Counted from the first letter of the stretch, positions 16,248 through 47,740 are shown. The stretch is 64,000 bases of DNA from Planctomycetia bacterium (GCA_030527185.1 JAUNBF010000004.1:30347-94346); one strand, 5' to 3'. Numbers and translations are program-made. Notes: a model not told the origin generated them from the letters alone.

Positions 16248-16264
16248 AAAGGAAAAAGAATAAA

Positions 16265-21923: not shown

Positions 21924-24497
21924 CTATTCTTCCGACAACTCTTTCGTGGGGGTGGGGCCTACAAAGGAATGGAAATTATCCCGTCCCAGTTTCGGCCATT
22001 CTCCGCCCAAATCTGCCGATTCGCACCGCATCCCGACCAGAACATCGTCGTCCAACGCATACGTCAACAGGTTCGGTGCCACAATCGTCCCCGCGGAACG
22101 AACCGCCGCCTCATATTTTACCGCCCACTTCTTGTCACCGCGTGGCGAAAGGGCATAAACCCACCCCGCGTTGTCTCCAAAATAGATCGTGCCATCGTCG
22201 CCAACGACCGGCGTGCTTTCAATCATCTCTTCGGCCTGATACTGCCATCGGATTTTATGGGAAGTGCCATCCACACTCACCAGGTATCCCTGACCGCCCT
22301 GGCGGGTGGAGAGACTTGCTCCCACGTAAATATGGCCGTGCGAATCAATCACCGGTGATCCCAGCAATTGCCCTGGCATGTGTACTGTCCACGCCACTTC
22401 CCCATTGGAATGAAAACCGATCAGTTTTTCTGTCCGGGAAGCGACGACAATGGTTCCCTCTTTCGTGATAGCTGGCGAGGAGTTCAAAAATCCGCCCGCG
22501 TAACCGACTTCACGACCCTGATCCCACAAATTCCGCCCGGAAACATCACCCAGTTGAATGGCAAAAAGATACCCTTCTTCCGAACCGATGTAAAGCGTAT
22601 CTCCCGCAATCACGCCCGACGAGTCGAGTTTGGCACGACATCGGAAATAGGGACGCGAATCCTTACGCCCTTCATTCGAGACGCGAATCAGCCCGCCGTT
22701 GTAGTCGCTGATGATCGTGTTTCCCCACGCATCGACAATCGGAGCCGCGTAACCCAGAGGTTCGCCTACCTGAACCGGCATCCACGACTGTTTGCCACTG
22801 GACGTGACGCAGTGCAAATAACCGTCTGCCGAGTGGAGATGATAGTCCCCATTGGCATCCACCACAATCGGCCCTGGCACGTGCGACTTGATCACATATT
22901 CCCAGGAAACTTCCGGTTCTGGGCGGGAAATATCGAGTGCGTAGAGACTTCCCTGCGACACCAGAATCATCCGCCCCTTGCTGTCCACCACCGGAGCGTT
23001 TCGCATCGGGCGGGCATGGACGGTGAAAGGTGGCTCTTCGGGGAATCCCCAAAAACATCGTTCGGGACGATCAATTTCCGGTCGAATTTCCGGTCGCGGC
23101 TCCGGGGGACGATACCGGGGCCGTGCTTTCGGATCGTTCGCGGAGGCTGGACGCCCTGCCGGAGTTTTCGGGACAGGTTTCCCCATCACATGAATCCCCG
23201 GCTTCTTCAACACCGGTTTTTTCGCAGGTTTTTCCCCTTCTTCCACAGGAGGGGCGGGGAAATTTTGCCGTGGCGGTGCTTTCGGCATGGGACGCTGCTG
23301 CGCCGGAGCAGGGCGGGGCGAAACCGCGGGTCGCGGCTGTGGTACGGATGGACGCAACTGCGGAGGAGCCGAGGGAGGGGCTGACGGGGGAGCCGAAGCT
23401 GATGGCGGCATCGGATTTTTCACCGGAAGAACCGTTTCCTGATTCGTTGCCTCCGTTCCCGTTCCCTGAAAAGACGCAGGGGAAGGAGGCATCGGTACAG
23501 GTGCTGTTGGATAGGAAGGTGGGGTCATCGAAGGTGGCTCAGGTGCCGGCTGTGTTGGCTGTGTTGGCTGCGGCGACATCGGCAGGGTGGGGGAAACAGG
23601 CATGTTCGGCATGGGACTGGGAGTCGAGGGAAAGCCGTTGTACGCATTTCCACCCATGGGATTGCCAGGCATGGAAGGTCCCGAAGGTGCCGACGGCGTA
23701 TTCATCGGGGCGGACGGCATTCCTCCAAAATTCCCCCCCATTCCAGCATTCATTCCTCCAGGCATACTTCCCATCGAACCCGTTCCACCCATATTCCCAG
23801 GCATCCCCGCATTTCCAGGCATGGGGGAAGGCGACATTCCCGCATTACCCATCGGCGTCCGTGGATTCATGGTACCGCCGGGAAAATTGCCCCGAATGGC
23901 TCCACCGGGAATCCCACCGCCAGGAATCCCCCCACCGGGCGTTGTTCCGAAATTGCCGCCGTTGTTTCCGAAACCGCCATTGCCCGGAGGATTTCCCATC
24001 GGTTGTTGCGTGGGGGTGCCAAACGGACTTTGCGGAGGACGAAAACCACCACCTGCCGGATTATTTCCGTACGGAGAGGGATTCCCAAACGGCGTATTGG
24101 GCGGAACGTTGCCATAGGGTGGATTCTGCTGCTGCGGCGAACCAAAATTTTGCTGTTGCGGCTGTTGGGAGCGACCAAAAGAGACATTGGGATTCGTATT
24201 GCCAAAGCCCCCCGAAGGCTGTCCGAAATTCCCCGAAGGCTGTTGCGGAAAACCTTGCTGAGGACGAAAACCGCCCGCATTGCCAAAGCCACCGGACGGT
24301 TGCGAGGGATAGTTGCCACCACCAAAATTGCCCGGAAAACCACCCCCGGAAGGTTGACCATACCCTCCCTGCGAACCGTAATTGTCGGGAAGAGCATGAA
24401 ACAGGCCGATTCCCTGGCTCCCACACTGAGGACAACGGAACGGCTCGGTCGGCTGCTGCAAACAACCACCACATTTGCTACATTGATAGGTTTTCAT
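21924..24497 (-). CDS. Zinc-ribbon protein with a long G/P/N/Q-rich disordered region and C-terminal PQQ-like beta-propeller
   Basis: N-terminus YQCSKCGGCLQQPTEPFRCPQCG. Residues ~40-480 are low complexity (GGFGN, PQQ and MPGN repeats). The C-terminal ~370 aa has repeated G.IY.G/DG.LYAL beta-propeller strands. No signal peptide or TM. Confidence 0.8.
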   Translation of the reverse strand: MKTYQCSKCGGCLQQPTEPFRCPQCGSQGIGLFHALPDNYGSQGGYGQPSGGGFPGNFGGGNYPSQPSGGFGNAGGFRPQQGFPQQPSGNFGQPSGGFGNTNPNVSFGRSQQPQQQNFGSPQQQNPPYGNVPPNTPFGNPSPYGNNPAGGGFRPPQSPFGTPTQQPMGNPPGNGGFGNNGGNFGTTPGGGIPGGGIPGGAIRGNFPGGTMNPRTPMGNAGMSPSPMPGNAGMPGNMGGTGSMGSMPGGMNAGMGGNFGGMPSAPMNTPSAPSGPSMPGNPMGGNAYNGFPSTPSPMPNMPVSPTLPMSPQPTQPTQPAPEPPSMTPPSYPTAPVPMPPSPASFQGTGTEATNQETVLPVKNPMPPSASAPPSAPPSAPPQLRPSVPQPRPAVSPRPAPAQQRPMPKAPPRQNFPAPPVEEGEKPAKKPVLKKPGIHVMGKPVPKTPAGRPASANDPKARPRYRPPEPRPEIRPEIDRPERCFWGFPEEPPFTVHARPMRNAPVVDSKGRMILVSQGSLYALDISRPEPEVSWEYVIKSHVPGPIVVDANGDYHLHSADGYLHCVTSSGKQSWMPVQVGEPLGYAAPIVDAWGNTIISDYNGGLIRVSNEGRKDSRPYFRCRAKLDSSGVIAGDTLYIGSEEGYLFAIQLGDVSGRNLWDQGREVGYAGGFLNSSPAITKEGTIVVASRTEKLIGFHSNGEVAWTVHMPGQLLGSPVIDSHGHIYVGASLSTRQGGQGYLVSVDGTSHKIRWQYQAEEMIESTPVVGDDGTIYFGDNAGWVYALSPRGDKKWAVKYEAAVRSAGTIVAPNLLTYALDDDVLVGMRCESADLGGEWPKLGRDNFHSFVGPTPTKELSEE

Positions 24498-24528
24498 CGT
24501 TTTATTTCTTTATATCGAAGAGAAAAAT

Positions 24529-25335
24529 TTACTGAACATCAACCAAGGCTTTGGAATAGACCGAACCATTCCCGCGAAGAACCACCCAGCCATGAACCTG
24601 AGTCACTTCCACTCCCCGCGACGTCGAACTATGCCGACTGCTGTCAAATCGCTGTCCCACCCGAACGATTTCCACACTGTTGGGCAACCCCACACTCTCG
24701 CACAACATCTGTGCCCACTGAGCCAGAATCGATTCAAACATCTCGCAATGGTACGGCGCATGAGCATTCCAGCGATAAAATGCCTCCCCCAAATCTTTCA
24801 ACAACAGAACCATCTTTTCTGGTGTCGAAGACTGAAACATCATCAAAAGACCCGCAAAATAACGACTATCCACGTCATTGGCCAGTACCCCCTGCAAAAG
24901 TGCCTGGCGTTCGCCTGCAATTTCGGGAACTCCCATCAGAGATTCGCCAAAAATGGCACTTTCCAGCCCGGATACGGACGCTGCCGGAACAGAAGTGGAG
25001 GTCTGGGAAGGTGGCGACGGAACCGACTCTCGGCCATTGCCAACTCGATTCAACTGTTCTTCCAGACGGCTGAATCGTTCCCACAACGTTTCCCCCAGCA
25101 TCTCTCCCAACGCATCCAAACGCTCTATGACTGGCGAAAGTGCCTGTGAAAAAAGACGTGAATCGATAGCCGTTTCCGAACCACCGGAACCGGTCGCTTT
25201 GCTTTTCCGCTCTTCCTGCTGAAGCAGATAGTCGGCAATCTGTTGTTGGGATTGCGTTAAAAGAGCATACAAACCGCCCAGCGAAACCGAATCCGACACG
25301 GCGTTTTCTTCCAACTTTTTCCATGAAAAGGACAT
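24529..25335 (-). CDS. GrpE-like protein (candidate nucleotide-exchange factor)
   Basis: The N-half is coiled-coil-like (IERLDALGEMLGETLWERFSRLEEQLNRV). The C-terminus VRVGQRFDSSRHSSTSRGVEVTQVHGWVVLRGNGSVYSKALVDV parallels the GrpE beta-domain pattern G..FDP..H......V..V...GY...g.v.R.A.V.V. SD GGGAG lies before ATG 25335. Confidence 0.55.
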   Translation of the reverse strand: MSFSWKKLEENAVSDSVSLGGLYALLTQSQQQIADYLLQQEERKSKATGSGGSETAIDSRLFSQALSPVIERLDALGEMLGETLWERFSRLEEQLNRVGNGRESVPSPPSQTSTSVPAASVSGLESAIFGESLMGVPEIAGERQALLQGVLANDVDSRYFAGLLMMFQSSTPEKMVLLLKDLGEAFYRWNAHAPYHCEMFESILAQWAQMLCESVGLPNSVEIVRVGQRFDSSRHSSTSRGVEVTQVHGWVVLRGNGSVYSKALVDVQ

Positions 25336-25634
25336 CTTTTTCTCCCTGTTTTTCTGATTTTGTTGTTCGGATACAAAAGCCCCTGCCTCCGGGAAGGGTG
25401 AAATGAACGCATGAAGCTCGAATAAGGATCAATTTAACGAGGCTCTGGAGCATTTCTAAAAAACATTCTCCCTATTTGGTTATCCATATTGAAAATGGTT
25501 ATATCCCTACCCTATAAAATTTCCATGTCCAATCCCAGGTTCAAATATCCGCCGAGAAAAAAGTAGGAATGGAAATATCTCCATCTTCTGCGGAAACTCT
25601 CCTACGCTGTCAAAATATCAAATGTGGTATGAAC

Positions 25635-25660
25635 ATCAATAATTATCAATTATCAATTAA
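25635..25660 (-). repeat. (TAATTGA)n heptamer repeat 9 nt after the stop of the Hsp70-fold gene
   Basis: The sense strand reads TAG AGCTTTGCT TAATTGA TAATTGA TAATTAT TGATG. Confidence 0.85.
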
Positions 25661-25668
25661 GCAAAGCT

Positions 25669-28485
25669 CTAACCCAACTCAATATTATCCAAACCACCGG
25701 TGTCGAGATAATAACGTTCATCCGCCAGCGTCCGCCAGGTAAAGAAGACGTTTTCTCCCAATACCGCGTCCTGACCTGCCACGATTCCACTGACCGATTC
25801 CACTTCCAGCCCCTCTTCCTGATTTTCGATTGCCTTGTGACGCTTGATTTTGATGGAAACCTGCGTCCGACCAATCCGATCGCCAACGTCCATCTTGATA
25901 ACATAAATCGGCGTGGCCTGGGCTGTTTCCACATCGCTCATCTTGCGACCGATAATCACACGCTGGGAACTGGTCGTGAATTCCGTGATTTCTTCCCGCG
26001 AGCCTTCTTCCGCCGGAGAGAACAAAATCCGCTCCTTCCGAATGCCGCTCGTCGAGTCGCTCATCACGCCCCAGTAATACGTATTCTCTTCCGATTTTCC
26101 CGTCATTTCAAACTTGAACTGTGGCAACATTCCATGCGCTGCCATGAATCCAATCGCCGCACCGACCACCACCGGACTTTTCGGATCGATAATCACACCA
26201 GGAGACATCCCCTTTTCATCCTGATAGGGATACCAGTTTCCCGCGTAGTGGTGGAACATCGGAACAATCCGGGACGGCGAAAGCGGAAGGTACATCCGAA
26301 CCAACTTCTGGATATAACTCAATTTGGAAGGTTGCCCTGCCAGCAAAACGACATCGACTTCATATTCCATACAGCGTTTGCAGAAATCGAACAGCAACTC
26401 GTCGAAAACCTCGTGAACCACCCCCTCAAACTCTGCCTGATGGACATACAGTTCCATATCCTGTTGAAGATTGTAGTAGCCGGGACCACGAAGTTTGTCG
26501 AATGCCTGCTGAAGGGATTCCAGAACCGCCGGATCGATCAGTTCCGGGTCCATGTGATTGATCGGTTCCGTCGTGATTCCCTCCGTCGCCAGCGAAAGAT
26601 AGTGTTGCGTCAACGGAATCAAAAGACGGTTCATCCACATCACTCGCTGGTTCCGAAATTCCCGGTTGCGCGGAACTTCCGGCCCAAAAAGAAGAAGGAC
26701 GTCCTCTTCCTCCATGGCAATGGCATCCCCAAACGCTGGCACAATAATCCGTTCCAACAAACGTTTGGCCAGTTGGTCGCCTGCCAGGGCAATGCCGTCC
26801 TGATGGAGCACTTTGCCACGAACATAGTCGTCAATCTTCGACTCGAAATTGTACTTCGCAATCATCAGGTCGGACGTACCTCCGCCAATATCAATACAGG
26901 CAATGCGGACTTCGTGCTGTTTGTCGCCAAATTCCTCCACTTTATTGGCCGTCGAGCCGCGAACCGCTCCCATCCGACGGCGTGACGCGGGCGAACCCAA
27001 CATCGGAGCGGTATCCACTTTCGGCTCCTCCACTTCCGGCTTGCGACGTTCCTGGTGCAGTGACTCAAACCAAATTCGCGGGTCTTGCCCCAAAAGCCGC
27101 AATTCACTCCAGATGTACGTCAGGTGAACCGCACTCGCCTCGTCAATCGAAAGATTCAACAACGGTTTGACATGCTGGTATTTCCCCAGCGTCAGATTAA
27201 AAATCTCGATCGCCTTTTGGACTTGAGCCTGCAACCGTTCCCGCTCTTCAGGAATCATGCCGCTAGGATACGTCAATGTCAATGTGCGGATTTCCCGCGC
27301 ACGACCAGCATCTCCCGATTGCGTGCGGTACTGAATCGAATTCAGGTACGTGTAAGCCTGCGTCAGAAGTTCGTAAATCGCGGCTGTCATCAGGACTCGC
27401 GGAGCATGTCGCGGTTTCAACGGCATTTCCGGCGCAAAATCGGTCGGTTTCACGCCACTTTCCCGCAGCAGAAAATCGTTGTCGTCCTCATGAATGTATT
27501 TCAACAAAGCTCCGTGCAGCGTCGAACAATACGTCCGCGTTCCCGCGCGGTCATGGGGATCGGCCATGTGCCAGTTGGCGCCTTCCAACCAACTCGAATC
27601 GTCCGCCCACAAATAACGTTTCGGAGAACTAACCCCGGTACGAATATCGTCTGATGTGGCAATCACCTGCAACACATCGTCCGCTTCCTTACCCATACGG
27701 ACTTGCGACAAATCCTCAAACATCGGCGGACGAACCGTCACTTCCACTTTGTTCATCCGCGACTTGCTGCCGCTCCCCCAACTGCTGAACCAACCCTTTT
27801 TCTCGCCCCCCTCATCCACCTGATGATACTCAATTTTCTTCATCGGCATGGGAGAAAGGTACGGCGTGTTGCACCAGTGCGTCTTGGAGGAAAACCAGCG
27901 TGCCGACGGATTCCGAACCGGCTCACCATCGTCGTTCCACGAATCCAGATGATAACGATTCGTCAACTCAAACGGCAACATCTGGGGTGTCTGGGAAATC
28001 TCGCCCGCCACTTCCAGCAACAACGCTCCCGTTCGGCTGTTCCCAAAATCGACCACCATGTGAACATGCTTCGCGTCCCCTGCCGTGGCGGCTGCCGGGC
28101 GAATGCAAATTTCAATCTGCCCCACGCCACGCAAGGGTTGGCCGTTGAGGTCGTGGATATTCTCCAGAACCAACTGGAAATCCCCTGTCAGGGCGTTCGC
28201 GTCGCAAAAATAGCCGACTTCCGGGTCGCCGCACGTCGTGTCCACCGCCAAAAATAGTTTGGACGTCGTTCCCTGAATGATTTGCCATTGGATGAAGGGA
28301 TAGTCCATTCCCGTCGGGGTGGCTGGGGCATTTCCACGTTTCTTACCCCCCGTGTCCGCTTCTTCCGCCAGACCACAGTGACATCGCTGCCAACCATTAC
28401 CGACTTGATGAATATTATAACGTGCCCCTCCCTTCAAGGGAACACACACCACCTGAACTCCGGTATTTGCAAAAAGTACGTACAT
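25669..28485 (-). CDS. Hsp70/actin-fold (ASKHA) ATPase, large, SrfB-like by recollection
   Basis: 938 aa. Phosphate-1 motif VVDFGNSRTG (res ~144-153), connect motif SIDEASAVHLTY (res ~446-457), phosphate-2 motif IDIGGGTSDLMI (res ~531-542) and adenosine-like motif VLLAGQPSKLSYIQ. No Hsp70 substrate-binding domain is recognisable. Confidence 0.75.
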   Translation of the reverse strand: MYVLFANTGVQVVCVPLKGGARYNIHQVGNGWQRCHCGLAEEADTGGKKRGNAPATPTGMDYPFIQWQIIQGTTSKLFLAVDTTCGDPEVGYFCDANALTGDFQLVLENIHDLNGQPLRGVGQIEICIRPAAATAGDAKHVHMVVDFGNSRTGALLLEVAGEISQTPQMLPFELTNRYHLDSWNDDGEPVRNPSARWFSSKTHWCNTPYLSPMPMKKIEYHQVDEGGEKKGWFSSWGSGSKSRMNKVEVTVRPPMFEDLSQVRMGKEADDVLQVIATSDDIRTGVSSPKRYLWADDSSWLEGANWHMADPHDRAGTRTYCSTLHGALLKYIHEDDNDFLLRESGVKPTDFAPEMPLKPRHAPRVLMTAAIYELLTQAYTYLNSIQYRTQSGDAGRAREIRTLTLTYPSGMIPEERERLQAQVQKAIEIFNLTLGKYQHVKPLLNLSIDEASAVHLTYIWSELRLLGQDPRIWFESLHQERRKPEVEEPKVDTAPMLGSPASRRRMGAVRGSTANKVEEFGDKQHEVRIACIDIGGGTSDLMIAKYNFESKIDDYVRGKVLHQDGIALAGDQLAKRLLERIIVPAFGDAIAMEEEDVLLLFGPEVPRNREFRNQRVMWMNRLLIPLTQHYLSLATEGITTEPINHMDPELIDPAVLESLQQAFDKLRGPGYYNLQQDMELYVHQAEFEGVVHEVFDELLFDFCKRCMEYEVDVVLLAGQPSKLSYIQKLVRMYLPLSPSRIVPMFHHYAGNWYPYQDEKGMSPGVIIDPKSPVVVGAAIGFMAAHGMLPQFKFEMTGKSEENTYYWGVMSDSTSGIRKERILFSPAEEGSREEITEFTTSSQRVIIGRKMSDVETAQATPIYVIKMDVGDRIGRTQVSIKIKRHKAIENQEEGLEVESVSGIVAGQDAVLGENVFFTWRTLADERYYLDTGGLDNIELG

Positions 28486-28570
28486 CGTTTTTCTCTATAA
28501 AAAATAAGGTGTCTTGAAAATGTCGTGAATCGTTGAAAAACCATTACATTGTGTCCACGGCTCCCATCGG

Positions 28571-28596
28571 CAATTATCAATTATCAATTATCAATT
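28571..28596 (-). repeat. (TAATTGA)n heptamer repeat, three units, 7 nt after the stop of the P-loop gene
   Basis: The sense strand reads TAG CTTGTCA AATTGA TAATTGA TAATTGA TAATTG CCGATGG. Confidence 0.9.
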
Positions 28597-28603
28597 TGAC
28601 AAG

Positions 28604-31198
28604 CTAGTTCTTTTTCATCTGCGCCAAAATACTTTCAAATGGCTCCAGAATCCGAATCAAATCCTCGTTGCCCGGCGGAATCTGGATATGGTCGCCCGCT
28701 CCCAACGCCAGCGCTTCCGGCAAACGTTCACACCAGCGTTTCACAAACGAGGCTGTCAAACCGTAATTGCCATAATACTCCAACGGCTTTTCATGCGGCT
28801 CTTTCTCGTCATCTTCCACGTCCAACTGCGGCGGGGCAATCGCTTCCTGCGTCGGGCCGGGGTTCATGATGTAGTCTTCCATAATCATCTTCACGTATTT
28901 CCGACGCGCATATCGACGTGCCGCCTCATCCCGTGTCTTCAAATTGACCACCGGACTTAAATCATCTATCAGCGTGTCGATACAATGCTGACTCTGCAAG
29001 TAGTCCCGCAGATACCGCACAAACGTGTTCAAATCGTTCCCGTCCAGCCACGGCGCACCATCGTCATGGCCTTTGGTATAATCTTCCCAACGTTTCGGAA
29101 CCTGTTTGGTCGCCCATTCGTGCAGGAACGCCCGCAGATTCTTCGGCAACGGGTCGCCGTGACGTTTGCCCGTGTCCGCGCAGTCCGCCAACTGCCAGTT
29201 TTCCCCTTCAGGAACACTCAACGCTTCCTGGAGAGCATACACCCTGGCATACGCCGCTTCCGGGTCGTCCGTCAACCAGTTCACCACCCGTTCCGCCGCG
29301 CGTACCCGCTTTTCCCGATCCACGTTCGCGTCCGGGTCCACCACCCAATCCCGTGCCAGCAAAAGGAGGCGATCCAGAACCTGATTGATTTCCATCTCCA
29401 ACTGATTCTGCTTGTCCGTGGCCGTTGTCACCGCTCGAATCCCCGCGGAAATCAGCGAAAGTCCACCGTCGCCATCCGTCATGGCGGTACTCCAGCGTTG
29501 TGCCGGATTGACCATGAAATCCTGAACCATTTCAGATTCCATAAACGCCTTTCCCGCACGAACCCACTTTTCAGGATCATCCGCCTGACGCTGTTCCTCA
29601 TCCGTATCCCACGTTCCCGGATACCGGATCGGATAGGTGTTCGTAAACGCTTTGCCGCGACCACCAAAATCGGTCATCACCGGTCCCAGCGTATCGACCA
29701 ACTGCCGCAGTCGTTGCTGGTACAGACCTTTGTCCGCATATTCCTGACGATTCCGAAATTCCTCATCAATTCCCGTCATTCCAATGAACAACGCGGGCAT
29801 ATCATCCTGCACCTTCGACGGCCAATACTTCTCACCATAACGGGCACGACCCCATTTGTCAATATGGTACTTCATTTGCGAAGTCACTTCCAGGTTGCCG
29901 CCACGCGAAAGAAGAATCAACGTCTGGATCTGCAACTCGTCCGTAAATCGTTCAAACAGGTAAGCCACCTTACCACGTTTGACAATCTCCATCTGCTCTT
30001 CCAGTTTGTCCGCGTCCTGCCGTTTTCCCTGTTCCGCTCCCTGACGTCCGGCTCGCATTCCGGGAATGTCCAGAAAGTCCATCTGCTCGATCACTTTTCG
30101 CCAGTCATCGTTCAATCGGTGCGGCAAAACCGGCAAAACCAGTTCCAACATCGCCGCCTGAATCGTTTCCAGGTCTTCCTCACCATTCCCACTTCCCGGA
30201 ACGTACTCCAGAACGTACCAATCCTTGCGCTGCCGCAAATGGAAATCTGCCCAATCGACCCGCGTAAAACATTTGGAGGTCTTCCGCTCGTGTACCTTCG
30301 CACGCTGCGAATCCAGCAGGAAACGAACCCCCGCCCAGTGTACCAGAATCGCTGGCTCGTGCGACGCGGAAAGTTTTTCCAGAAATTTATTGATTCGGAC
30401 AAACAGACCATTCAACGTTGACCAACCACCCCAGAAAATCTGCCCAGCCGCGTGAATGTATCCCTCCTCCGAAAGCGGATAACGACTCAAAAGAGCGTTC
30501 AGAATCGCTTCTTTCGTCGGAAATCCGCGTCGATCCACCGTCCGCATGTACGAATACGCGTCGAGAATGTCCATCCGCCAGCGTCGATCCACGCTCGTGC
30601 CGGGATATTGCCGGGAAACGTCTTCCAACATCTTCTCCAAATGCGGCTCGTCCCACGGAAAGTCCATCCCACGGCATTCCACCTGAAATCCACGTGCCAG
30701 CACACGAATCCACTCCACTCGCGTCAGGGCCTTCACCATCACCGGATATTCCGGCGAAACGCTTTCCGCAATACGGTCTTTCGTGGTAAATCGCGTTACC
30801 AGTGCCGTGGCTTCATTGGAACCACTTTGCGGATTCAGGTCGTTGTTGAAAGACAAGTCCTTATAATATGCCGGTTCGCCATGAGCCTCGTCCCGACCCA
30901 GAGGGCTGAACTGCTCGCTCTGAGCACGCAAAACCTGGCCCATGAAAAGACTTTTTCCCACCTGTGACGGACCATAAACTGCCGCCGCGACAGGAACTTT
31001 TGACGAGGTATAAAGACTGCGTGCCAGACGCCTCAACTGGAGAACCTCAAATTCGTCGCTCTCCGCAATCGGTAATAAATCAAGTTTCCGACGGTCGCTG
31101 TTGTACTCCGCAAGCCAATCACAAATCTCTGTCGCCAGATTCTCCACACGTTCTGCCTGTCGAATGATCTGACGATCCCGTTCATCTGGAAATCCCAT
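28604..31198 (-). CDS. Large P-loop NTPase (GTPase-like), SrfC-like by recollection
   Basis: 864 aa. Walker A AVYGPSQVGKSLF (res 73-85, nt ~30953-30976). DxxG-type motif FLDIPGMRAG. The remainder is helical. No signal peptide or TM. Confidence 0.7.
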   Translation of the reverse strand: MGFPDERDRQIIRQAERVENLATEICDWLAEYNSDRRKLDLLPIAESDEFEVLQLRRLARSLYTSSKVPVAAAVYGPSQVGKSLFMGQVLRAQSEQFSPLGRDEAHGEPAYYKDLSFNNDLNPQSGSNEATALVTRFTTKDRIAESVSPEYPVMVKALTRVEWIRVLARGFQVECRGMDFPWDEPHLEKMLEDVSRQYPGTSVDRRWRMDILDAYSYMRTVDRRGFPTKEAILNALLSRYPLSEEGYIHAAGQIFWGGWSTLNGLFVRINKFLEKLSASHEPAILVHWAGVRFLLDSQRAKVHERKTSKCFTRVDWADFHLRQRKDWYVLEYVPGSGNGEEDLETIQAAMLELVLPVLPHRLNDDWRKVIEQMDFLDIPGMRAGRQGAEQGKRQDADKLEEQMEIVKRGKVAYLFERFTDELQIQTLILLSRGGNLEVTSQMKYHIDKWGRARYGEKYWPSKVQDDMPALFIGMTGIDEEFRNRQEYADKGLYQQRLRQLVDTLGPVMTDFGGRGKAFTNTYPIRYPGTWDTDEEQRQADDPEKWVRAGKAFMESEMVQDFMVNPAQRWSTAMTDGDGGLSLISAGIRAVTTATDKQNQLEMEINQVLDRLLLLARDWVVDPDANVDREKRVRAAERVVNWLTDDPEAAYARVYALQEALSVPEGENWQLADCADTGKRHGDPLPKNLRAFLHEWATKQVPKRWEDYTKGHDDGAPWLDGNDLNTFVRYLRDYLQSQHCIDTLIDDLSPVVNLKTRDEAARRYARRKYVKMIMEDYIMNPGPTQEAIAPPQLDVEDDEKEPHEKPLEYYGNYGLTASFVKRWCERLPEALALGAGDHIQIPPGNEDLIRILEPFESILAQMKKN

Positions 31199-31330
31199 AA
31201 TACTCTCTGCTTCGGTTGGTTAAAATAAAAAAGACTCGATTCCAAAAAGTTTACTCCAGGGGAAATTCTTCCCAAGAGAAGGAAATCCAGACGGTTAAAA
31301 ATTCAACCGCCTGAATTTTTGTTGCTTTTT

Positions 31331-34300
31331 TTAATCCACACGTTTAATCATTCCGCCTATTCTGAAATTATACGGATATTTCTGAATGTTGCTACCCCCC
31401 GCAGTCCGCGATTCGATAATCAGGGTATATTGATCGTTTCGCCCGCGATACGCAATGGCCGGGCTGGAAAGGAGTACATTCAGACCATCCGCCCCAGGGG
31501 TGCCTGCCACCCAGACTTCCGGGGGGGCCGTATTCGCCTCGTAAACGCGATATTCCAACGCCCCTTCGCCCTGGCTGGCCGAAACGGAAAGCGTGACCGT
31601 GAAGTCGTTGGCATTTTCGTTCAACTGACCATCCACACTCAGATAACGTTCCCCCGCCACCGCCACCGTAGCGTACAATTCCTGCCCGCCATACGCGGCG
31701 CGAATCTGGCTCTTGCCCAGCGAAACCGCCCGGAAGCGGGATGGATCGAGGCTGTCCTGCTGCAAAATCGTCTCATCCGTCGAACTTATCGTGGCGCTGA
31801 CCGGGAAACTCTGCCCTGTTTCGTCGCGTGCCGTGACCACAAACGACGGCGTCGTTTCGCCCACCCGCAGCGTAATATCCATCGGCGAAAGCGACAGTTG
31901 CAACGGCTTCGTCACCGTGACCGGAACATACGTTGTCAAATTGTCGTAAACTCCTTGCGGATCGATCGAACTGACTTGCAAACGTGCCGTTCCGGGAGCA
32001 TTGGCACGAATCGTGTTTCCTTCCACGCTGACCACTCCCGCGTTCTCCACCACACTCACACGATACGCCACATCCATCGGCATCATTCCCGACGACGGCA
32101 TCACTCGCACCGAATCAAACGTCATGGTATTTCCCACGCTCATTTCAAGCGCTCCGGGCAGAACTGCCAAAATGGCTCCTTCCGCAGCCACGTTCCCCAC
32201 CTGAACGAACAGCGGCAATGCCGTCCGGTCGCCCAGTTGAGCGCTGACACGTCCTGTCCCCTCCTTGCCGTTGGGAACGAGCCGATAAATCCCGTTTTCG
32301 CCCCGTTCCAGCGTGAAGAGCGACGAACTGCTGCTCAACTCCAGACCAGGATCCGCCGAAACATCCCGCCCCGGCCGCCCGTCCGAGTATTCCTCCAAAA
32401 TCTGGAGCGGAACCGCCCCCGACGTTTGGGAAAGACGCATCGACGCCGGATTGAACCGCAATCCTGTCACCGAGCCAATCGAGTAACCATCCGTCGTCAC
32501 GTAGTCCACCGCACGATCTCCGAAAACGTCGGTACTGGTAACGCCATGATAACCTCCGTCCAGAATCGTATCTCCCGTCCGGTACGTTACCGCCGCGTTG
32601 GGATCGACATATGCCGACTCCACCGAAACCGGAATCGCCGACACTTCGACCACCTCAATCGTCCCTTCCGAAACCAGACCCGCAAAACGTGCCACGACGT
32701 TCGTCTTACCCACCGTCTTGCCGAAAATCATATTTCCCTGAACGACCGCGATATTCGGGTCTGCCGTTGTAAGCTGCAACCCCGTTTCCGGCTGGAGAAC
32801 GTACAGCCGCCCGCCACGCAACGCCGTCACCTGATACGCCCGACCTTCGCCCACAGCCACCGTTGTGTGTACCGGATCAATCGCCAGATTCGTGTACGGA
32901 TTGTCGTCCACCTCCACGCTTACCGCACGTTGCAAACGATTTTCCCAGTCAATCTGCACCGTCGCTTTCCCTGCCGCAACCGCTTCGACGCTTTGGATAC
33001 CGTTCATCTTCGCCGCGTTGCCATCGACCGAAACTTTCAACTTCGGTTGGGCAAAGAGCGGACGCAGACCACTGTTGCTGCGACCCTGAATGAAGAGGTT
33101 GGAGCGATCTCCCGTCGACATCCGAATCGCCCCCGGTTCCACCACCAGTTCCGAAATCGGATGTTCATCGACCGTAATCGTCGCCTTGCCTGCCTTCCCT
33201 TTTCCGGTAATTTCAGGAATCATCACCGAAATCTCCACCGGGCCGCCCGGTTTCAATCCACACAATTGCAGCCCGCGAACTTCGCAGACCGTCGAATCAC
33301 CACTTCGGAAAACCGCACTGGCGGTGCGTTCCAGCCGCACCGTCCGGTCTTTCGATACCGCGTAAACCCGCAGTTCCGTCGCCTGACCTGCCGAAATCGT
33401 GCTGTTGGCAGGTTCGACAAGAATCTCCCCTTCCTCACGCAAAAGCGTCAACGTTTCCTGATCCACGCCGCCGACAATCACTCGCATCGTCGCTTTTTTG
33501 TCCGCCATCGTGAAAATCACGTCCGTCGCGCCCGGCGTTTTGCCTACCAGTGCGTGACGTGCCGCGTCGTACTCGCAAATGCCCGGCACAAGCGGCGTCA
33601 CTTTGCACTGCATACTGAAATCGACGTTCCCGCGAATCAACGCAAAATCTTTCCCGACCAGCTTGCTTTCGCCGACCATCATCTTGATCACATTGTCGGT
33701 GGGACCCAGTTTTTCGTCAATCGTCGCCACCACTTCCACGGCAGCAGGAGCACTCGTGATTCCCTGCAATTCCGCCGTGATTCCCGCTTTTCCCAGAGCC
33801 ACGGAAGTCGTCACCGGTCCCTGCGGCGCGGCCACTGCCGGATCACTCGATTTCCAGACGATATTTCCCATGGAGGTCAACACGCCGACCGATTTTTTCT
33901 CCTTGTAGCCATGCAACTGGAATGTCACCGTCTCACCCGGCAACATCCGAATATCTTTTTCCGGCACCAACCGCAATTCGTCGATATCGACCGTTTCCGT
34001 CACGTTGAGTGTCAAAGGCGGCTCCTCACTGTCCACCCCTTTGTACTCCGCGATAAACGTCACTTTCCCCGGCTTGGCCGCGACCAACTCACCGTTGGAG
34101 GGGCTGACAATCGATTTATCTCCGGCAATGGCGTGTAAATTCGCGTCCTTGGTGACAATCCGCACAAATCCGTCGGGGTACTCCGCCTCCACACGATAAT
34201 CGACGTATTTCGCCCCCACCGGCATGGAAACTTCCGTCCCGCTGTTACTGATAATCCGCACCGCTGACGGTTCTCCTTCCCGTGGAGCCGGTTTTTCACC

Positions 34301-37300
34301 TGGCACGAACGGATCCATCGTCTGCGTCCAAAAACGAACCATCCGATCTCCCACGTTGGCCTGAAGCCACTGAATATGCCCCGGTTTGAGCGCTTCGAGT
34401 ACCGGAGCCGTCCAAACGACCGATTCTCCTTCAAAATCAGGCATCCACCGGACATTCGGAGCCGGTTCCTCCACCTCCCCTTTCCGCATCCAGATCGAAT
34501 AGGCCTGTGACGCACCTGTCGGCAAAAGTTTTCCGCCCGGTTCCCGTTTCACAAAAAGCTCCACCTCCGGGTCGGCAGGATTCAGCGTGGGCGTCCCCAC
34601 CGTAATCCGACATTCCGCCGTTTTGCCGCGATATTGGGCACGAAGTGTGAAAACACCGCTCTCTTCCCCCGCCACTTCCGCCGATGGTCGCAAAAGCCCG
34701 GACGGAGCACGCCAGAAGAGCTTCTCCGGCACCTTCCACAAAACTTTTTCCGGCAAAACTTCCGTAAACGTTTCCGAACCCTCCAACTGCTCTTCCACCG
34801 CCAAAGAAATCGACTGTCCCGGTGCGAGCGTCACTTCCGAAGGTACGACGCGAAGTGTCTGTGGAGGATTCGTGGCCGTGACGGTCACACGTGCCTGAGC
34901 CGGATTTTTCAAATAAGGCAAAAACGAAGCGGATACATCAAACGGTTCGGAAGCCTGCTTCCCAAACAAAAGAGGACTCTGCCACTGCACCGCGTCCCGA
35001 TTTCCAAAGGAATAGTACACCCCCGGAGACTCCATCGCCACGCTCCACTCGCTCTCCTCCCCCTCCCCGGCATCGGGATTTCGACCTTCCAACATCAGTT
35101 CCAACGGAGCCACTTCCCCAACTGCCACCTGCACATCCGTCGGCTGCCAGTAAAGTCGGGCATTTCGTGGATGAACCACCCGTAAATCGACGCTGGCCGG
35201 ATTTTCCGAAGCAGGGTGTTCCGCAGTCAAGGTGGCTGTGCCTGCCGCGACCGCCTTGTAAGCTCCCCTATTTTCCCCCGCGACCGCCACCACTTCCGCG
35301 TTGCCAGAGGCATATTTTCCCACATTCGGCACCAGTTCCACATCCCCCTGAGCCGTTTTTCCCGTCAAAATCGCCATTCCCGGTTCGCCCGCCACACGCA
35401 GCGACCGATCCACCTCCAACGCCAACATCACCTCCGCTCGTTCCACCGTCGTCAACTCCGCGTGATTCGACTCCGTTCCCAGATAATTCCCCCAGATATT
35501 GACCGGCCCGGCCCCCACATCAAGTGCCATCGCCTTGCCATGGACAAAGTCGAAACCTTCCACTTCGTCGGGCAGGGGATTCGTGTTCCACTGCATTCGG
35601 GTGTACGGAACGAGCGTACTCACACCATCACCATACGTTGCCCAACCGTCAAACGTCTGGCACAGTCCCAACGGCAAAGCCACTTTCCCTCCCGGACGGA
35701 TTTCCAGCCGCATCGGCGCTGGAATCACCTGCACAGACGAGGCTTTTTTCTGTCCCTGGTACGAGAAAACAATCTGTTGCGGGTCGTCCTGTGTCGTCGG
35801 ATTCAGCCCACGAATTCCCATGCGGCGAAAGTCCATCCCGGCGTAACGAACGTTCGGCAACGACTCCGCTCGAACAGCACCGGTATCCAGTGCGTAAAAC
35901 CGCGACGCTCCACATCGGGCAAAAAATTCCGGGCAAATCTCATGATCCACCGCCACGGCTGCCACGGGAGGATACATCATCAGCCCATCCGCTTTCAATG
36001 CTGCCACCGTCACGGGAAGCGTGATTTCCTGCGTCCCATCCGTCACGGTAATTTCCGCCGACCCCGCCTTTTTTCCAATCAGATAACGATTCTTTTCCAC
36101 CCGCACCACATTCGGCTGGCTGCTGGTGACGCTCACCGCCGACTCGTCCCCGCAAATCCACGACAACGGGTATTTCTGATCCACCGCCAGCGTAATCTGA
36201 GCTTCTTTCCCCGCAGGATAGACACGCAATCGCGCGTCGGTTGCCTTCTGTTCAATTGTCAAAACCGTCTCTGCCGTCTGTATCACCGTGGCTGCCGGAG
36301 TGCCGTCGGTCAGTGCGACCTGCAATCGCCCCGTTCCACTCTGCAACGTTCGCAGATGATTCCCGCCGTAGCGTGCCATGGCAGGAGGGTCGATCCCCCA
36401 CTGCAAATGCGACGACCCGGTAAATTCGTACTTTTCCCCCTCCGCCGTCCTGCCGAAAACCTGGAGACCAACCTTTTTCCCCACAGGCAACGTCGCCGTT
36501 CCCAACGCAATTTCCAGCGACGTGATGGCTGCCGTGCCGACACTCACCGTGGCCGACGCGTCCATCCAGCTATCCTGCGGCGTGGCGCGGTAGCGGGCGG
36601 AAATCGTACTTTCCCCCGGCTGCAAACCTTCGACAAAACCTTGGTAAAAATAGACCGTTCCATCATTTTTGGCATTCCAGTCCGCCGCGTTCGACAACTC
36701 ACTGATCCGGCCATCCTCCCATTCCCCCATCAGCCGCACCTGAGCCGTGGAACCATCCGCCAGCGTCAAGTGTTCCGGTTCCAGCCAAATCCGTTGGGGA
36801 TTGACCGCCGCCGCAACCGTCACCGGGACGCTCTTCCGCCGCCAGCCGTGAAAAAAGTGAATCTTCGTCTCCCCTTCGCTGCACGCCAGGGCTGTTCGTG
36901 AATCTTCCTGAAAAAAAGCTATCGTCGGGTCTTCCACCGCCTGAAGCACACGGTCCGTCACATCTTCCGACAGGAAAAAGCCAAAACCGTCCCATCCCGG
37001 CGTGATGACACGGAACGTTGCCGTTGCCCCGACACTCGTTTTCCACGGCCCCGGAACCACTTTCAGCGTCAATTGATTCCACAGAACCCACCCCGCCAAA
37101 AACAACAGAAACAACACCGCCAGAATTCGGCGATTTCTTCGGCGAGCAGCCTCCCGTGCCTTCCGTTTGGCTGTCGGAACTTTCAGACAAATCGGACAAC
37201 GTGCTTTTGCTCCTGGCAGACGGACGTACAACTCGTTACATGCCTCATCGTCACAAATCAACGGCGTGCCGAACTCCTGATGAATCGGATGGTAGCCTGG

Positions 37301-37753
37301 AATCCAGACCAGACGCCACAATCCGCCCGCGTCCTGGTACTTGAAAAAATAGTATGTCCGATCCGGCCGTCGTTTGTTTTCGATCAAATCCTGAAATTCT
37401 TCCGACAATTTCTGGTAGAGAATCTTCTCCGTCGTCGAGGAGGGCTTGATCCGCTCAAAACGCAATTGTAATCGTTCGATCTCACTCGATAACTTTTCGT
37501 TCAAATCTTCATTATTGACCGTCGTGCAGGTTATCTCTTCAATCCGCCCACCCTGGTCGTTCCGAATATAAAAAGAGAGAATTTCGCCATTTTCATCCCA
37601 TTCCGGTTCCGGGGTCATGCCGCCAAACCATCGAAACAGAATCCGATCGTTGGCGTTCGTGGGATCGAAAAGAGGGCAACCAGGTTCCAGTGCCACGGGA
37701 CGGAAGAATTGTCCAGATTCCGAAAGATTGATACGTACAAACGCTTTGGCCAT
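31331..37753 (-). CDS. Giant single-pass membrane protein: cytoplasmic N-domain with zinc ribbon, TM helix, ~1900 aa of Big_2-like Ig repeats
   Basis: 2140 aa. C167/C172..C186/C189 (CDDEAC..CPIC). Basic stretch KRKAREAARRRNRR then TM ILAVLFLLFLAGWVLW (nt ~37076-37129). Many repeats end in motifs like GKKAGSAEITVTDG and GKAGITAEL, typical of bacterial Ig-like group 2 domains. Confidence 0.85.
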   Translation of the reverse strand: MAKAFVRINLSESGQFFRPVALEPGCPLFDPTNANDRILFRWFGGMTPEPEWDENGEILSFYIRNDQGGRIEEITCTTVNNEDLNEKLSSEIERLQLRFERIKPSSTTEKILYQKLSEEFQDLIENKRRPDRTYYFFKYQDAGGLWRLVWIPGYHPIHQEFGTPLICDDEACNELYVRLPGAKARCPICLKVPTAKRKAREAARRRNRRILAVLFLLFLAGWVLWNQLTLKVVPGPWKTSVGATATFRVITPGWDGFGFFLSEDVTDRVLQAVEDPTIAFFQEDSRTALACSEGETKIHFFHGWRRKSVPVTVAAAVNPQRIWLEPEHLTLADGSTAQVRLMGEWEDGRISELSNAADWNAKNDGTVYFYQGFVEGLQPGESTISARYRATPQDSWMDASATVSVGTAAITSLEIALGTATLPVGKKVGLQVFGRTAEGEKYEFTGSSHLQWGIDPPAMARYGGNHLRTLQSGTGRLQVALTDGTPAATVIQTAETVLTIEQKATDARLRVYPAGKEAQITLAVDQKYPLSWICGDESAVSVTSSQPNVVRVEKNRYLIGKKAGSAEITVTDGTQEITLPVTVAALKADGLMMYPPVAAVAVDHEICPEFFARCGASRFYALDTGAVRAESLPNVRYAGMDFRRMGIRGLNPTTQDDPQQIVFSYQGQKKASSVQVIPAPMRLEIRPGGKVALPLGLCQTFDGWATYGDGVSTLVPYTRMQWNTNPLPDEVEGFDFVHGKAMALDVGAGPVNIWGNYLGTESNHAELTTVERAEVMLALEVDRSLRVAGEPGMAILTGKTAQGDVELVPNVGKYASGNAEVVAVAGENRGAYKAVAAGTATLTAEHPASENPASVDLRVVHPRNARLYWQPTDVQVAVGEVAPLELMLEGRNPDAGEGEESEWSVAMESPGVYYSFGNRDAVQWQSPLLFGKQASEPFDVSASFLPYLKNPAQARVTVTATNPPQTLRVVPSEVTLAPGQSISLAVEEQLEGSETFTEVLPEKVLWKVPEKLFWRAPSGLLRPSAEVAGEESGVFTLRAQYRGKTAECRITVGTPTLNPADPEVELFVKREPGGKLLPTGASQAYSIWMRKGEVEEPAPNVRWMPDFEGESVVWTAPVLEALKPGHIQWLQANVGDRMVRFWTQTMDPFVPGEKPAPREGEPSAVRIISNSGTEVSMPVGAKYVDYRVEAEYPDGFVRIVTKDANLHAIAGDKSIVSPSNGELVAAKPGKVTFIAEYKGVDSEEPPLTLNVTETVDIDELRLVPEKDIRMLPGETVTFQLHGYKEKKSVGVLTSMGNIVWKSSDPAVAAPQGPVTTSVALGKAGITAELQGITSAPAAVEVVATIDEKLGPTDNVIKMMVGESKLVGKDFALIRGNVDFSMQCKVTPLVPGICEYDAARHALVGKTPGATDVIFTMADKKATMRVIVGGVDQETLTLLREEGEILVEPANSTISAGQATELRVYAVSKDRTVRLERTASAVFRSGDSTVCEVRGLQLCGLKPGGPVEISVMIPEITGKGKAGKATITVDEHPISELVVEPGAIRMSTGDRSNLFIQGRSNSGLRPLFAQPKLKVSVDGNAAKMNGIQSVEAVAAGKATVQIDWENRLQRAVSVEVDDNPYTNLAIDPVHTTVAVGEGRAYQVTALRGGRLYVLQPETGLQLTTADPNIAVVQGNMIFGKTVGKTNVVARFAGLVSEGTIEVVEVSAIPVSVESAYVDPNAAVTYRTGDTILDGGYHGVTSTDVFGDRAVDYVTTDGYSIGSVTGLRFNPASMRLSQTSGAVPLQILEEYSDGRPGRDVSADPGLELSSSSSLFTLERGENGIYRLVPNGKEGTGRVSAQLGDRTALPLFVQVGNVAAEGAILAVLPGALEMSVGNTMTFDSVRVMPSSGMMPMDVAYRVSVVENAGVVSVEGNTIRANAPGTARLQVSSIDPQGVYDNLTTYVPVTVTKPLQLSLSPMDITLRVGETTPSFVVTARDETGQSFPVSATISSTDETILQQDSLDPSRFRAVSLGKSQIRAAYGGQELYATVAVAGERYLSVDGQLNENANDFTVTLSVSASQGEGALEYRVYEANTAPPEVWVAGTPGADGLNVLLSSPAIAYRGRNDQYTLIIESRTAGGSNIQKYPYNFRIGGMIKRVD

Positions 37754-38040
37754 GAGTTTTATCCATTAACGATTTTAATAGCTTGTCATAATTCCTGTCC
37801 ATCCTCCTCGAATCTCCTTCCCTGGAGCCAAAAAAGGTGACTTTCGATAGGAAGTCGGGGAATGGACAGAACTCCCTGATGAGTGAAAAAAAGGAATACT
37901 CTTTATAGCTTAACTCTTTACCCCGAAAATTTCAAGAACGTTCCTCCCAATTTTGCCAAAATTTTTGAAAATTTTTGAGACTTCCTCCCCACTCTTCCGC
38001 TTTCTTGCCAAAATTTTCACAACTTCCGCTTTCCGTATGC

Positions 38041-45548: not shown

Positions 45549-45597
45549 GCTATTTCCTTTCGCAAAGAGTTGTGAATTTGTTTCTAATGAACCATAG

Positions 45598-45625: not shown

Positions 45626-45634
45626 GAAAATACC

Positions 45635-47692: not shown

Positions 47693-47740
47693 CGTTTTTG
47701 CCAATAACCTTCCTCTGGTTTCTCTGGAATTCCTTTCCAA

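Follow-up and report, generated by a model that had tools for sequence, protein, structure and literature searches.

In thousands of genomes, SrfB and SrfC are labelled "virulence factors", and functional work so far treats both as toxins. Their genes belong to the srfABC operon, as in Salmonella enterica (STM1593-1595), Xenorhabdus stockiae, and Haemophilus parainfluenzae. Canonical SrfA has a cytoplasmic, degenerate protein-kinase-like N-domain, then a transmembrane (TM) segment at about 210-250, which is followed in the periplasm by a lipocalin domain of about 120 amino acids, with four cysteines and an FLNGxW motif; in a model from AlphaFold 3 (AF3), the N-domain of SrfA serves as a platform on which SrfB and then SrfC assemble, and export of SrfABC in vesicles has been put forward as a hypothesis (10.64898/2026.09.18.752743). 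The three Srf proteins of X. stockiae associate in a heteromeric complex, as seen by native polyacrylamide gel electrophoresis and co-immunoprecipitation, and are cytotoxic; the toxicity was observed with lysates or after transfection and not with natural delivery (PMC6950479). Here we analyze five minus-strand genes, g1 to g5, within 64,000 nucleotides of the genome of Planctomycetia bacterium (GCA_030527185.1, JAUNBF010000004.1:30347-94346). We call this whole stretch the window, and positions are counted from its first nucleotide. Our best explanation, with a probability of roughly 55%, is that these genes encode the form that the SrfABC complex takes in Pirellulales (Planctomycetota): a vertically inherited transmembrane nucleoside triphosphatase (NTPase) machine, with the gene order A-C-B and two added cytoplasmic partners, that acts on or through a giant envelope protein with immunoglobulin (Ig) repeats.

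As in srfABC, the cluster encodes members of the SrfB and SrfC families (g3 and g2), with conserved NTPase motifs, along with a protein (g1) that has a cytoplasmic N-domain of about 200 amino acids with a weak, remote similarity to kinases, one TM helix, and an extracytoplasmic part. In contrast to SrfA, the ectodomain of g1 is about 1900 amino acids of Ig-like repeats instead of a lipocalin, and its N-domain (g1N) carries an extra four-cysteine zinc ribbon and is not recognized by the hidden Markov model (HMM) for SrfA_fam. The planctomycete cluster also adds two conserved genes, g4 and g5. A first-pass annotation of this DNA had described the order as inverted and the partners as different, and knew of no characterized system with this composition. 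The order is indeed A-C-B and g4 and g5 are new partners, but g1 matches SrfA in architecture and position, and the core is a variant of srfABC. What is new here is a planctomycete variant of a known, functionally obscure system, with two new partners; it is not categorically new. Our literature search found nothing that links SrfB or SrfC with Planctomycetes, dynamins, or Hsp70, and no description of partners of the g4 or g5 type.

The layout of the locus was as first annotated. Calling and translating open reading frames (ORFs) recovered the same five large, co-directional genes, separated by 132, 118, 333, and 31 bp, and every motif that had been noted in g1, g2, g3, and g5 is present in the translations. 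No opposite-strand genes lie between the five, as the plus-strand ORFs inside the cluster are shadows.

g2 and g3 belong to the SrfC and SrfB families

The first-pass annotation had likened g2 to SrfC and g3 to SrfB, and Pfam bears out both. g2 matches PF10139 (Virul_Fac/SrfC) with 182.8 bits (cutoff 28.1, E = 1.4e-53). The match is limited to positions 26-628 of the 878 in the profile, so the C-terminal third of g2 has diverged. g3 matches PF07520 (SrfB) with 268.2 bits (cutoff 27.1, E = 2e-79), in three stretches that reach the end of the profile, and NCBI labels a protein identical to g3 as "virulence factor SrfB". Both g3 and g4 have 100% identical matches among NCBI's proteins from metagenome-assembled genomes. 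A scan with NCBIfam added nothing beyond the Pfam assignments.

The nucleotide-binding motifs of g2 are well conserved. Across the family, G76, S78, Q79, G81, K82, S83, T135, R136, F137, D374, L376, P379, T475, and D478 are invariant, and D377 and G380 are nearly so (at least 90%). The motifs GxSQxGKS, TRF, DxLDxPG, and TxxD are kept (invariant or at least 90%) from planctomycetes to enterobacteria, in a G1-G4-like order. As for the fold class of g2, no relative in PDB was found by comparing sequence profiles, and Pfam families other than Virul_Fac gave just a weak match to AAA_16.

In g3, the residues of the phosphate-1, phosphate-2, and adenosine motifs (G717, P719, and S720 for the last) are invariant even when the proteobacterial SrfB proteins are included, and these are just 24-26% identical to g3 (tblastn against plasmids). 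The phosphate-2 motif, DIGGGTSD, aligns with DLGGGTFD of DnaK, and an IDEASAV motif is at residues 447-453. When we compared a profile of planctomycete and proteobacterial SrfB to PDB, all 20 matches were to the nucleotide-binding domains (NBDs) of Hsp70 proteins (DnaK, mortalin, or BiP) or to MreB. These matches are weak (E = 0.036-3.8) and align on DIGGGTxD and the adenosine motif. Almost all of them are to Hsp70 NBDs, and we therefore assign g3 to the Hsp70/actin-fold ATPases, as first annotated. The similarity to Hsp70 is at the level of the NBD (E = 0.036-0.9): Pfam's HSP70 family (PF00012) does not match g3, and no Hsp70 substrate-binding domain is detectable. No solved structures were found among the sequence relatives of g2, g3, or g4. 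g3 has 389 relatives, and the best 120 are all at least 65% identical to it; among these, every one with a named source is from a planctomycete.

g1 has the architecture of SrfA

Next to the SrfC and SrfB genes, g1 encodes an N-domain (residues 1-190), a TM helix (210-228), and an ectodomain (232-2140), which is the architecture of SrfA. The maximum of the 19-residue Kyte-Doolittle hydropathy is 2.08, at the TM helix, and no other segment of the five proteins reaches 1.8. A model of g1N from AlphaFold 2 (AF2) has a helix at 194-231, and the basic KRKAREAARRRNRR stretch on the N-side of the TM implies that the N-terminus is inside. g1 has no cleavable signal peptide; instead, an internal signal-anchor follows the cytoplasmic part of about 210 residues. 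The hydropathy scan found no TM or signal-like segment in g2-g5, in agreement with the first-pass annotation, which had seen no export signals in these proteins.

The ectodomain had been described as Big_2-like repeats. Using our own iterative HMM of 63 columns, we linked 14 diverged Ig-like repeats across residues 232-2017. The assignment to Big_2 (PF02368) is less secure: just one repeat (505-590), to which the other 13 are tied by our HMM only, matches it, slightly below the threshold (22.4 bits vs. a cutoff of 22.8, E = 1.2e-4, profile positions 11-79 of 79). There are also further weak Ig-type matches from Pfam, and we found no match to lipocalins in the ectodomain. Long extracytoplasmic arrays of Big domains, with varying numbers of repeats, are also found in SiiE, LapA, and BapA, but these are secreted by type I secretion systems via C-terminal signals and have neither a cytoplasmic domain nor a TM anchor. 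In contrast, g1 is predicted to be anchored in the cytoplasmic membrane with its N-terminus inside, it is linked to cytoplasmic NTPases, and no genes for type I secretion are nearby.

An initial homology search with g1N gave no matches, while an exhaustive search with HMMER identified a family of 290 representative clusters. In nearly all of the 150 representatives that were listed, g1N is at or near the N-terminus, and the host proteins have about 500-2400 amino acids. Cysteines 167, 172, 186, and 189 of the zinc ribbon are invariant or nearly so in two alignments of g1N. All four are missing in an Anammoximicrobium-like subgroup (L079, L082, and L084), and g5 is not adjacent in 3 of the 4 such loci that have enough flanking sequence; the two losses may co-vary.

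The AF2 model of g1N, from an alignment of 28 representatives, has high confidence (predicted local distance difference test [pLDDT] of 92.9; predicted template-modelling score of 0.81). Foldseek found no significant match to this model in PDB, with a best E value of 0.029. The top 17 hits were all HipA/HipT Ser/Thr kinases, and CtkA and IP3K came next (E = 0.029-0.8, with template-modelling scores of about 0.2). The N-domain of SrfA was reported to have a remote similarity to kinases of the same kind.

The ectodomain varies more than the N-domain does. Across the loci that we scanned, planctomycete g1 has 866-2240 amino acids, and a divergent planctomycete locus (L097) has a g1 of just 556 amino acids; the ectodomains of g1-type proteins are Ig-like or CarboxypepD_reg. 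In proteobacteria as well, the N-domain is kept while the ectodomain varies. For example, SrfA_fam covers just residues 4-184 of SrfA from Cereibacter. g1 is the architectural equivalent of SrfA and probably its functional equivalent, although it is not a proven homologue.

The cluster is conserved across planctomycetes

We searched one genome per GTDB species with an alignment of g2, which identified 130 species, and we examined the best 80. We then used phmmer to compare the proteins in the window to all of the ORFs in each locus, and the denominators below are the loci that could be evaluated for each gene. The best 80 of the 130 species are all represented by metagenome-assembled genomes of planctomycetes, and those that have been classified are Thermoguttaceae, Pirellulaceae, Pirellulales, or Ca. 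Anammoximicrobium. Across the Pirellulales loci, g2 is 56-91% identical, and the identity of g2 and g3 across families tracks taxonomy (56-91%).

g3 adjoins g2 in 67 of 68 loci, and g1 is present upstream of these SrfC/SrfB genes in 64 of 70 (its N-domain was found in 45 of 50). g4 is adjacent to g3 in 44 of 45 loci, and g5 is present and adjacent in 35 of 39. The first-pass annotation had treated the five genes as one cluster, and they are in fact conserved together: all 34 complete sets are colinear and on a single strand. The same order of five genes was seen on long contigs that carry homologues of g4 and in two further metagenomic contexts of g3's relatives. The flanks of the cluster are not conserved. 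Since each protein has a family of homologues and the order recurs in dozens of species, the clustering is far beyond what would be expected by chance.

More divergent loci differ in their content. One divergent planctomycete (L096) has g1, g2, g3, and a zinc ribbon/propeller protein, but no g4; L097 has g1 through g4 but no g5. In two other cases (L095, 328-3940; L098, 1-11233), g1N is fused to CarboxypepD_reg repeats and SrfB/SrfC are not nearby. Based on the contents of these lineages, the invariant core is the platform protein with SrfC and SrfB, and g4 and g5 are frequent but lineage-specific partners.

Some neighbors in these loci are worth recording. The g1N gene in L098 is flanked by genes for kinase-like proteins, one of which is a fusion with an FGE-sulfatase domain, and FGE/SUMF1 domains also flank the srfABC genes of proteobacteria. 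After the cluster in L096, there is a canonical Hsp70 gene that is apparently frameshifted (23145-24848), and, on a Rahnella plasmid, srfC and an HscC gene (L092, 13285+) are 3 kb apart.

g4 is not detectably related to GrpE

g4 has 35 homologous proteins, and all of the ones with a named source are from Planctomycetia. Invariant features of the alignment are LLKDxGEAxYR, C212, RxD/RH, and GW...LR...KA, and the C-terminal α/β domain (residues 118-268) is strongly conserved. In an AF2 model of g4 (mean pLDDT of 70), a domain of five helices (118-214) has pLDDT of about 90, while three strands are at about 70.

The first-pass annotation had proposed that the C-terminal part of g4 is GrpE-like and that g3 has its own exchange factor. 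Neither claim is supported. Pfam's GrpE family (PF01025) matched 0 of 26 homologues of g4 at E ≤ 10, a comparison of the profile of g4 to PDB did not find GrpE at E ≤ 10, and hhalign gave a probability of 1.6% for g4 vs. GrpE from E. coli. Given a model whose β part has pLDDT of only about 70, Foldseek found no match in PDB at E ≤ 0.001, and GrpE was not among the top 50. The "GrpE motif" at the C-terminus has an hhalign score of 8.8, while shuffled sequences score 9.4 ± 1.5, so this resemblance by eye is at chance level. Full-length g4 does score above shuffles (21.0 vs. 13.4 ± 2.4, with 0 of 100 as high, or z of about 3), but this alignment involves just the N-terminal coiled coil, where g4 has LSPVIERLD and GrpE has LLPVIDSLD. 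Because shuffling the residues destroys the heptad periodicity, this score is weak evidence, and it may be a generic effect of coiled coils. With the Pfam, profile, fold, and C-terminal shuffling tests all against it, we do not regard the identity of g4 as GrpE as supported.

More broadly, the likeness to DnaK-GrpE consists of the Hsp70/actin ATPase motifs in g3 and of a coiled coil with an LxPVIExLD stretch in g4. Unlike in DnaK-GrpE, Pfam's HSP70 and GrpE families miss g3 and g4, the fold of g4 is unmatched, and g4 is dispensable in L096. For the C-terminal domain of g4, we detected no relatives in Pfam or among proteins of solved structure. We also considered whether g4 is related to the TM "hypothetical" protein that is encoded after srfC in proteobacteria, and found no relation.

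g5 combines a zinc ribbon with a β-propeller

g5 has a zinc ribbon (CxxC...CxxC, residues 6-26), a disordered region of about 440 amino acids that is rich in P, G, N, S, and Q, and a propeller at about 481-857. Residues 653-800 match PQQ_2/BamB-like (PF13360) with 58.4 bits (cutoff 27.6). Because the equivalog models for BamB score far below their cutoffs, g5 shares the fold family of this propeller but is not BamB. The zinc ribbon and the propeller are kept together in 35 of 39 loci, with linkers of 84-511 amino acids. In the window, the first 200 residues of the linker contain 11 FG dipeptides, in GGFGN or NFG contexts, which brings FG repeats to mind. This enrichment in FG is seen only in the closest relatives, from gut and rumen; elsewhere, the linker is rich in G, P, Q, N, S, and T but lacks FG.

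What the cluster might do

If the cluster does encode a SrfABC-type machine, then g1 would play the role of SrfA: a bitopic protein whose catalytically dead, kinase-like N-domain and zinc ribbon would form a docking platform in the cytoplasm. The SrfB-type ATPase (g3) and the SrfC-type NTPase (g2) would assemble on this platform. The first-pass annotation had also suggested that the NTPases dock on the N-domain of g1, which fits the published AF3 model of SrfA's N-domain with SrfB and SrfC and the published co-immunoprecipitation. g4, with its α/β domain behind a coiled coil, and g5 would join as lineage-specific cytoplasmic cofactors. Nucleotide binding and hydrolysis by g2 and g3 could then be coupled, via the single TM helix, to the chain of Ig repeats in the periplasm or on the cell surface. 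This coupling might determine how the ectodomain is assembled, positioned, or put under tension, or might relay the state of the ectodomain inward. Such a system would be a housekeeping machine of the envelope and not a host-directed toxin.

In PilM-PilN, GspL, FtsA-FtsN, and MreB-RodZ, a cytoplasmic ATPase of the ASKHA fold is bound to a short cytoplasmic segment of a single-pass membrane protein, and the work is done by the periplasmic part of the latter. These systems have small periplasmic parts and no SrfC-type NTPase. By analogy to the PilM-PilN type of ATPase/adaptor pair, it is plausible that g3 could couple to g1.

How the genes are inherited bears on several alternatives. Identity that tracks taxonomy, fixed synteny with variable flanks, and the lack of matches to defense systems or viruses all point to a cellular machine with vertical inheritance and away from a mobile toxin or defense island. 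Unlike that of srfABC, the distribution of the planctomycete genes looks vertical within one order and not plasmid- or island-borne. Chance juxtaposition of unrelated genes, which might be suggested by the AT-rich spacer before g4 (it could hold a separate promoter) or by the non-conserved dapA-like gene that lies 7 bp after g5, is refuted by the 34 of 34 complete loci, across species and families, with the same order and strand, and by the metagenomic contigs; we give it essentially no credence. For Xenorhabdus and Haemophilus, SrfABC has been proposed to be a tripartite toxin. Such a toxin, with a complex or vesicles that are delivered to other cells and are cytotoxic, would fit the family membership of g2 and g3, the cytotoxicity and heteromeric complex of the X. 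stockiae proteins (PMC6950479), and the vesicle-export hypothesis (10.64898/2026.09.18.752743). But the planctomycetes of this order are mostly free-living or gut commensals, and 56-91% identity and a fixed gene order across them fit a core cellular function better than they fit a diversifying toxin. Also, the cytoplasmic proteins have no export signals, and no genes for secretion systems, immunity, or Lol-like export are nearby. The published toxicity was not seen with natural delivery (PMC6950479). Overall, a toxin seems improbable. We are similarly doubtful of a conflict, defense, or signalling system, in which the Ig-repeat protein would sense an invader or a neighbor and a response would be set off by the NTPases together with partners of the vWA, PP2C, kinase, and FHA types. 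It is true that vWA-like and PP2C_2 genes abut the cluster, on either side, in 8-11 planctomycete loci, that a gene for a FHA membrane protein is divergently upstream in 7 loci, that Ser/Thr kinases are frequent neighbors, that vWA proteins flank srfABC in proteobacteria as well, and that a GmrSD-like nuclease and a helicase are encoded 6-10 kb away in the window. However, none of the vWA, PP2C, or kinase genes are in the window, the rate of kinase neighbors is about what we would expect for planctomycete genomes (by our own rough estimate), and no effector domain (nuclease, protease, pore-former, or NADase) is present in the cluster. PADLOC-DB 2.0 gave no significant match (just two marginal ones, with E = 0.009 and E = 0.06), a scan of 2.9 M viral contigs found no relatives, and the conservation looks vertical instead of island-like or patchy.

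Another explanation is that g3 and g2, with g4 and g5, are dedicated to the biogenesis or quality control of g1: they might hold, target, or extract this giant signal-anchored protein, help to export or fold its ectodomain of about 1900 amino acids, or clear stalled copies, without regulating the mature protein. The Hsp70-like fold of g3, the internal signal-anchor of g1 in place of a cleavable signal peptide, the tight linkage of g1, g2, and g3, the hairpin after g1 (which could tune the stoichiometry), and the canonical Hsp70 gene beside the cluster in L096 are all compatible with this. On the other hand, SrfB and SrfC also serve small ectodomains (the lipocalin of about 120 amino acids, or the 556-residue g1 of L097), so the size of the ectodomain cannot be the reason for the system. 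And g3 has no detectable Hsp70 substrate-binding domain, while g4 is not demonstrably a nucleotide exchange factor. We consider dedicated biogenesis to be unlikely, though it deserves more weight than a toxin or a defense system.

Several results weigh against a SrfABC-type machine. The SrfA_fam model (NF040486) matched 0 of 29 members of the g1N family, even at E ≤ 10; as a control, it gives 480 bits for SrfA from Leclercia and 79 bits for the N-domain of SrfA from Cereibacter. Using hhalign, neither of our g1N profiles (from 4 or 29 sequences) had a significant match to SrfA. The profile of 29 sequences aligned to five N-domains of proteobacterial SrfA colinearly and end-to-end, but with a probability of just 0.4% (for example, YFFKY..G.WRLVWCWGY vs. 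VYLV.G.PVLTFWGF). The kinase matches of the g1N model are individually insignificant. The gene order is A-C-B in the window and in all of the planctomycete loci, but A-B-C in five proteobacterial plasmids. Downstream of srfABC, proteobacteria often have genes for a TM hypothetical protein and a vWA protein, for a Lol-like pair of ABC proteins, and for a SUMF1/FGE enzyme; none of these genes is in the window. Neighbors with vWA domains do recur in both planctomycete and proteobacterial srf loci. In a clade of Thermoguttaceae from ruminants (L040, L042, L043, L044, L046, and L048), we found just g2-g3, about 66% identical to the proteins in the window, and did not detect g1, g4, or g5 within 7-10 kb. 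Complex formation, localization, and nucleotide specificity in this organism are predicted from the genes alone. Finally, to our knowledge, no biochemical function is known for any SrfABC system, and the sole experimental phenotype is the cytotoxicity of the Xenorhabdus proteins. (In the ruminant clade, the g2-g3 pair adjoins genes for unrelated secreted giant proteins or housekeeping genes.)

The SrfB/SrfC pair is conserved and syntenic in planctomycetes, which are mostly not pathogenic, and is tied to a protein with the architecture of SrfA but a wholly different and much larger ectodomain, which argues for a general role in the envelope. More speculatively, SrfABC might not be a toxin family at all but an ancient, modular transmembrane device, in which a platform with a pseudo-kinase fold recruits an Hsp70/actin-fold ATPase and a GTPase-like NTPase that act mechanically on, or signal from, an interchangeable ectodomain. 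In Pirellulales, the device would be a conserved component of the envelope that, with g4 and g5, controls an Ig fiber of up to about 2000 amino acids that could span the enlarged periplasm. We offer this tentatively and would not be surprised if it were wrong. The locus does suggest a modular logic (a platform, two NTPases, and an exchangeable ectodomain), and it supplies two obligate-looking new partners with testable interactions and a high-confidence model of the platform domain. The range in the length of g1, from 556 to 2240 amino acids, is a natural series of ectodomains with which to probe the role of the NTPases. In the context of planctomycete cell biology, the cluster is a candidate for a machine that joins the cytoplasm to the unusual periplasm and the surface.

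Other features of the locus

Table 1. Features of the cluster and of the rest of the window
Feature	Position	Strand	Description
g1	31331..37753	-	2140 aa; SrfA-like bitopic membrane protein with giant Ig-repeat ectodomain
g1 residues 1-160	37274..37753	-	g1N family; cytoplasmic α/β domain whose fold is remotely similar to kinases (HipA-like)
g1 zinc ribbon, residues 167-189	37187..37255	-	four Cys; CDDEAC (167-172) and CPIC (186-189), just before basic stretch and TM
g1 TM helix, residues 210-228	37070..37126	-	KRKAREAARRRNRR stretch on N-side
g1 ectodomain, residues 232-2140	31334..37060	-	at least 14 diverged Ig-like repeats
g2	28604..31198	-	864 aa; P-loop NTPase of the SrfC/Virul_Fac family; motifs in GTPase-like order
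g2 Walker A / G1, residues 76-83	30950..30973	-	GPSQVGKS; from translation and family alignment
g2 Walker B / G3-like DxxG, residues 377-380	30059..30070	-	DIPG; from translation and family alignment
g3	25669..28485	-	938 aa; SrfB-family Hsp70/actin-fold ATPase
g3 phosphate-1 motif, residues 146-152	28030..28050	-	DFGNSRT; invariant D146, G148, N149, S150, R151
g3 phosphate-2 motif, residues 532-539	26869..26892	-	DIGGGTSD; invariant D532, G534-T537, D539
g4	24529..25335	-	268 aa; planctomycete-specific; helical low-complexity N-half and conserved C-terminal α/β domain
g5	21924..24497	-	857 aa; zinc ribbon, low-complexity linker, and β-propeller
g5 linker, residues 37-480	23058..24389	-	
Promoter-like site	37772..37801	-	TGGACA-18-TAAAAT; 10/12 consensus positions; in the 399-bp spacer 5' of g1
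Hairpin	31283..31318	-	16-bp stem; g1-g2 spacer, 13 nt past the g1 stop; weak T-tail
g3-g4 spacer	25336..25668	-	333 bp; AT-rich; TTGATAATTGATAATTATTGATG repeats
Short-chain dehydrogenase	38153..38959	+	upstream neighbor of g1
dapA-like (DHDPS-family) gene	20993..21916	-	3' of g5
GmrSD-type endonuclease and helicase	43815..47740	-	577 and 700 aa
HZS_alpha-type tandem paralogues	13695..19597	+	850 and 1110 aa
Small signal recognition particle RNA	932..1029	-	RF00169; 46.8 bits

Because the gene upstream of g1 is on the plus strand and encodes a short-chain dehydrogenase (adh_short, E = 5e-36), g1 heads the unit, and the two genes are separated by a divergent promoter region. (A minus-strand ORF of 290 amino acids at 37910-38782, which might have been a sixth gene, is a shadow of the dehydrogenase gene.) The promoter-like site in this region was identified by its match to the consensus, and such sites are no more numerous in the region than expected from shuffled sequences. 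The hairpin after g1 could be an attenuator or a processing site, and it could set the ratio of expression of g1 to g2-g5. The spacer between g3 and g4 contains tandem TTGATAAT-like repeats (ttaattgataattgataattattgatg) and varies in length among orthologues; judging from its sequence, it may be an operator or the site of an internal promoter. Rfam found nothing inside the cluster. The only match in the window at the gathering level is the bacterial small signal recognition particle RNA.

The dapA-like gene is not beside the cluster in any other planctomycete locus. We rejected it and the 451-amino-acid ORF beyond it as members of the cluster, as they recur at most in the closest relative. The Rahnella plasmid also carries a DHDPS-family gene (L092, 1921-2811), located two genes upstream of srfA; this is probably a coincidence. 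Across planctomycetes, recurrent neighbors in subsets of the genomes include vWA-like, PP2C_2, Ser/Thr-kinase/WD40, and FHA proteins (L007, 15502-20746; L072, 2-5041; L005, 26-931; L051, 1590-2789), and a TPR/SHD1 protein is encoded downstream of g5 in 8 loci. We did not rely on Ser/Thr kinases as specific partners: they are present in 14 of about 72 loci, which is near our guess of the rate for kinase-rich planctomycete genomes.

Elsewhere in the window, the gene for the GmrSD-type restriction endonuclease adjoins a gene for a DinG/XPD-like helicase. GC content dips to 0.42 here, and this pair, which is 6 kb from the cluster, may be a small defense island. The two tandem paralogues on the plus strand each have a middle domain of the hydrazine-synthase-α (HZS_alpha) type; the second also has weak matches to cytochrome c and PD40, and the pair is preceded by a gene for a DUF1559/N-methyl prepilin-like protein.

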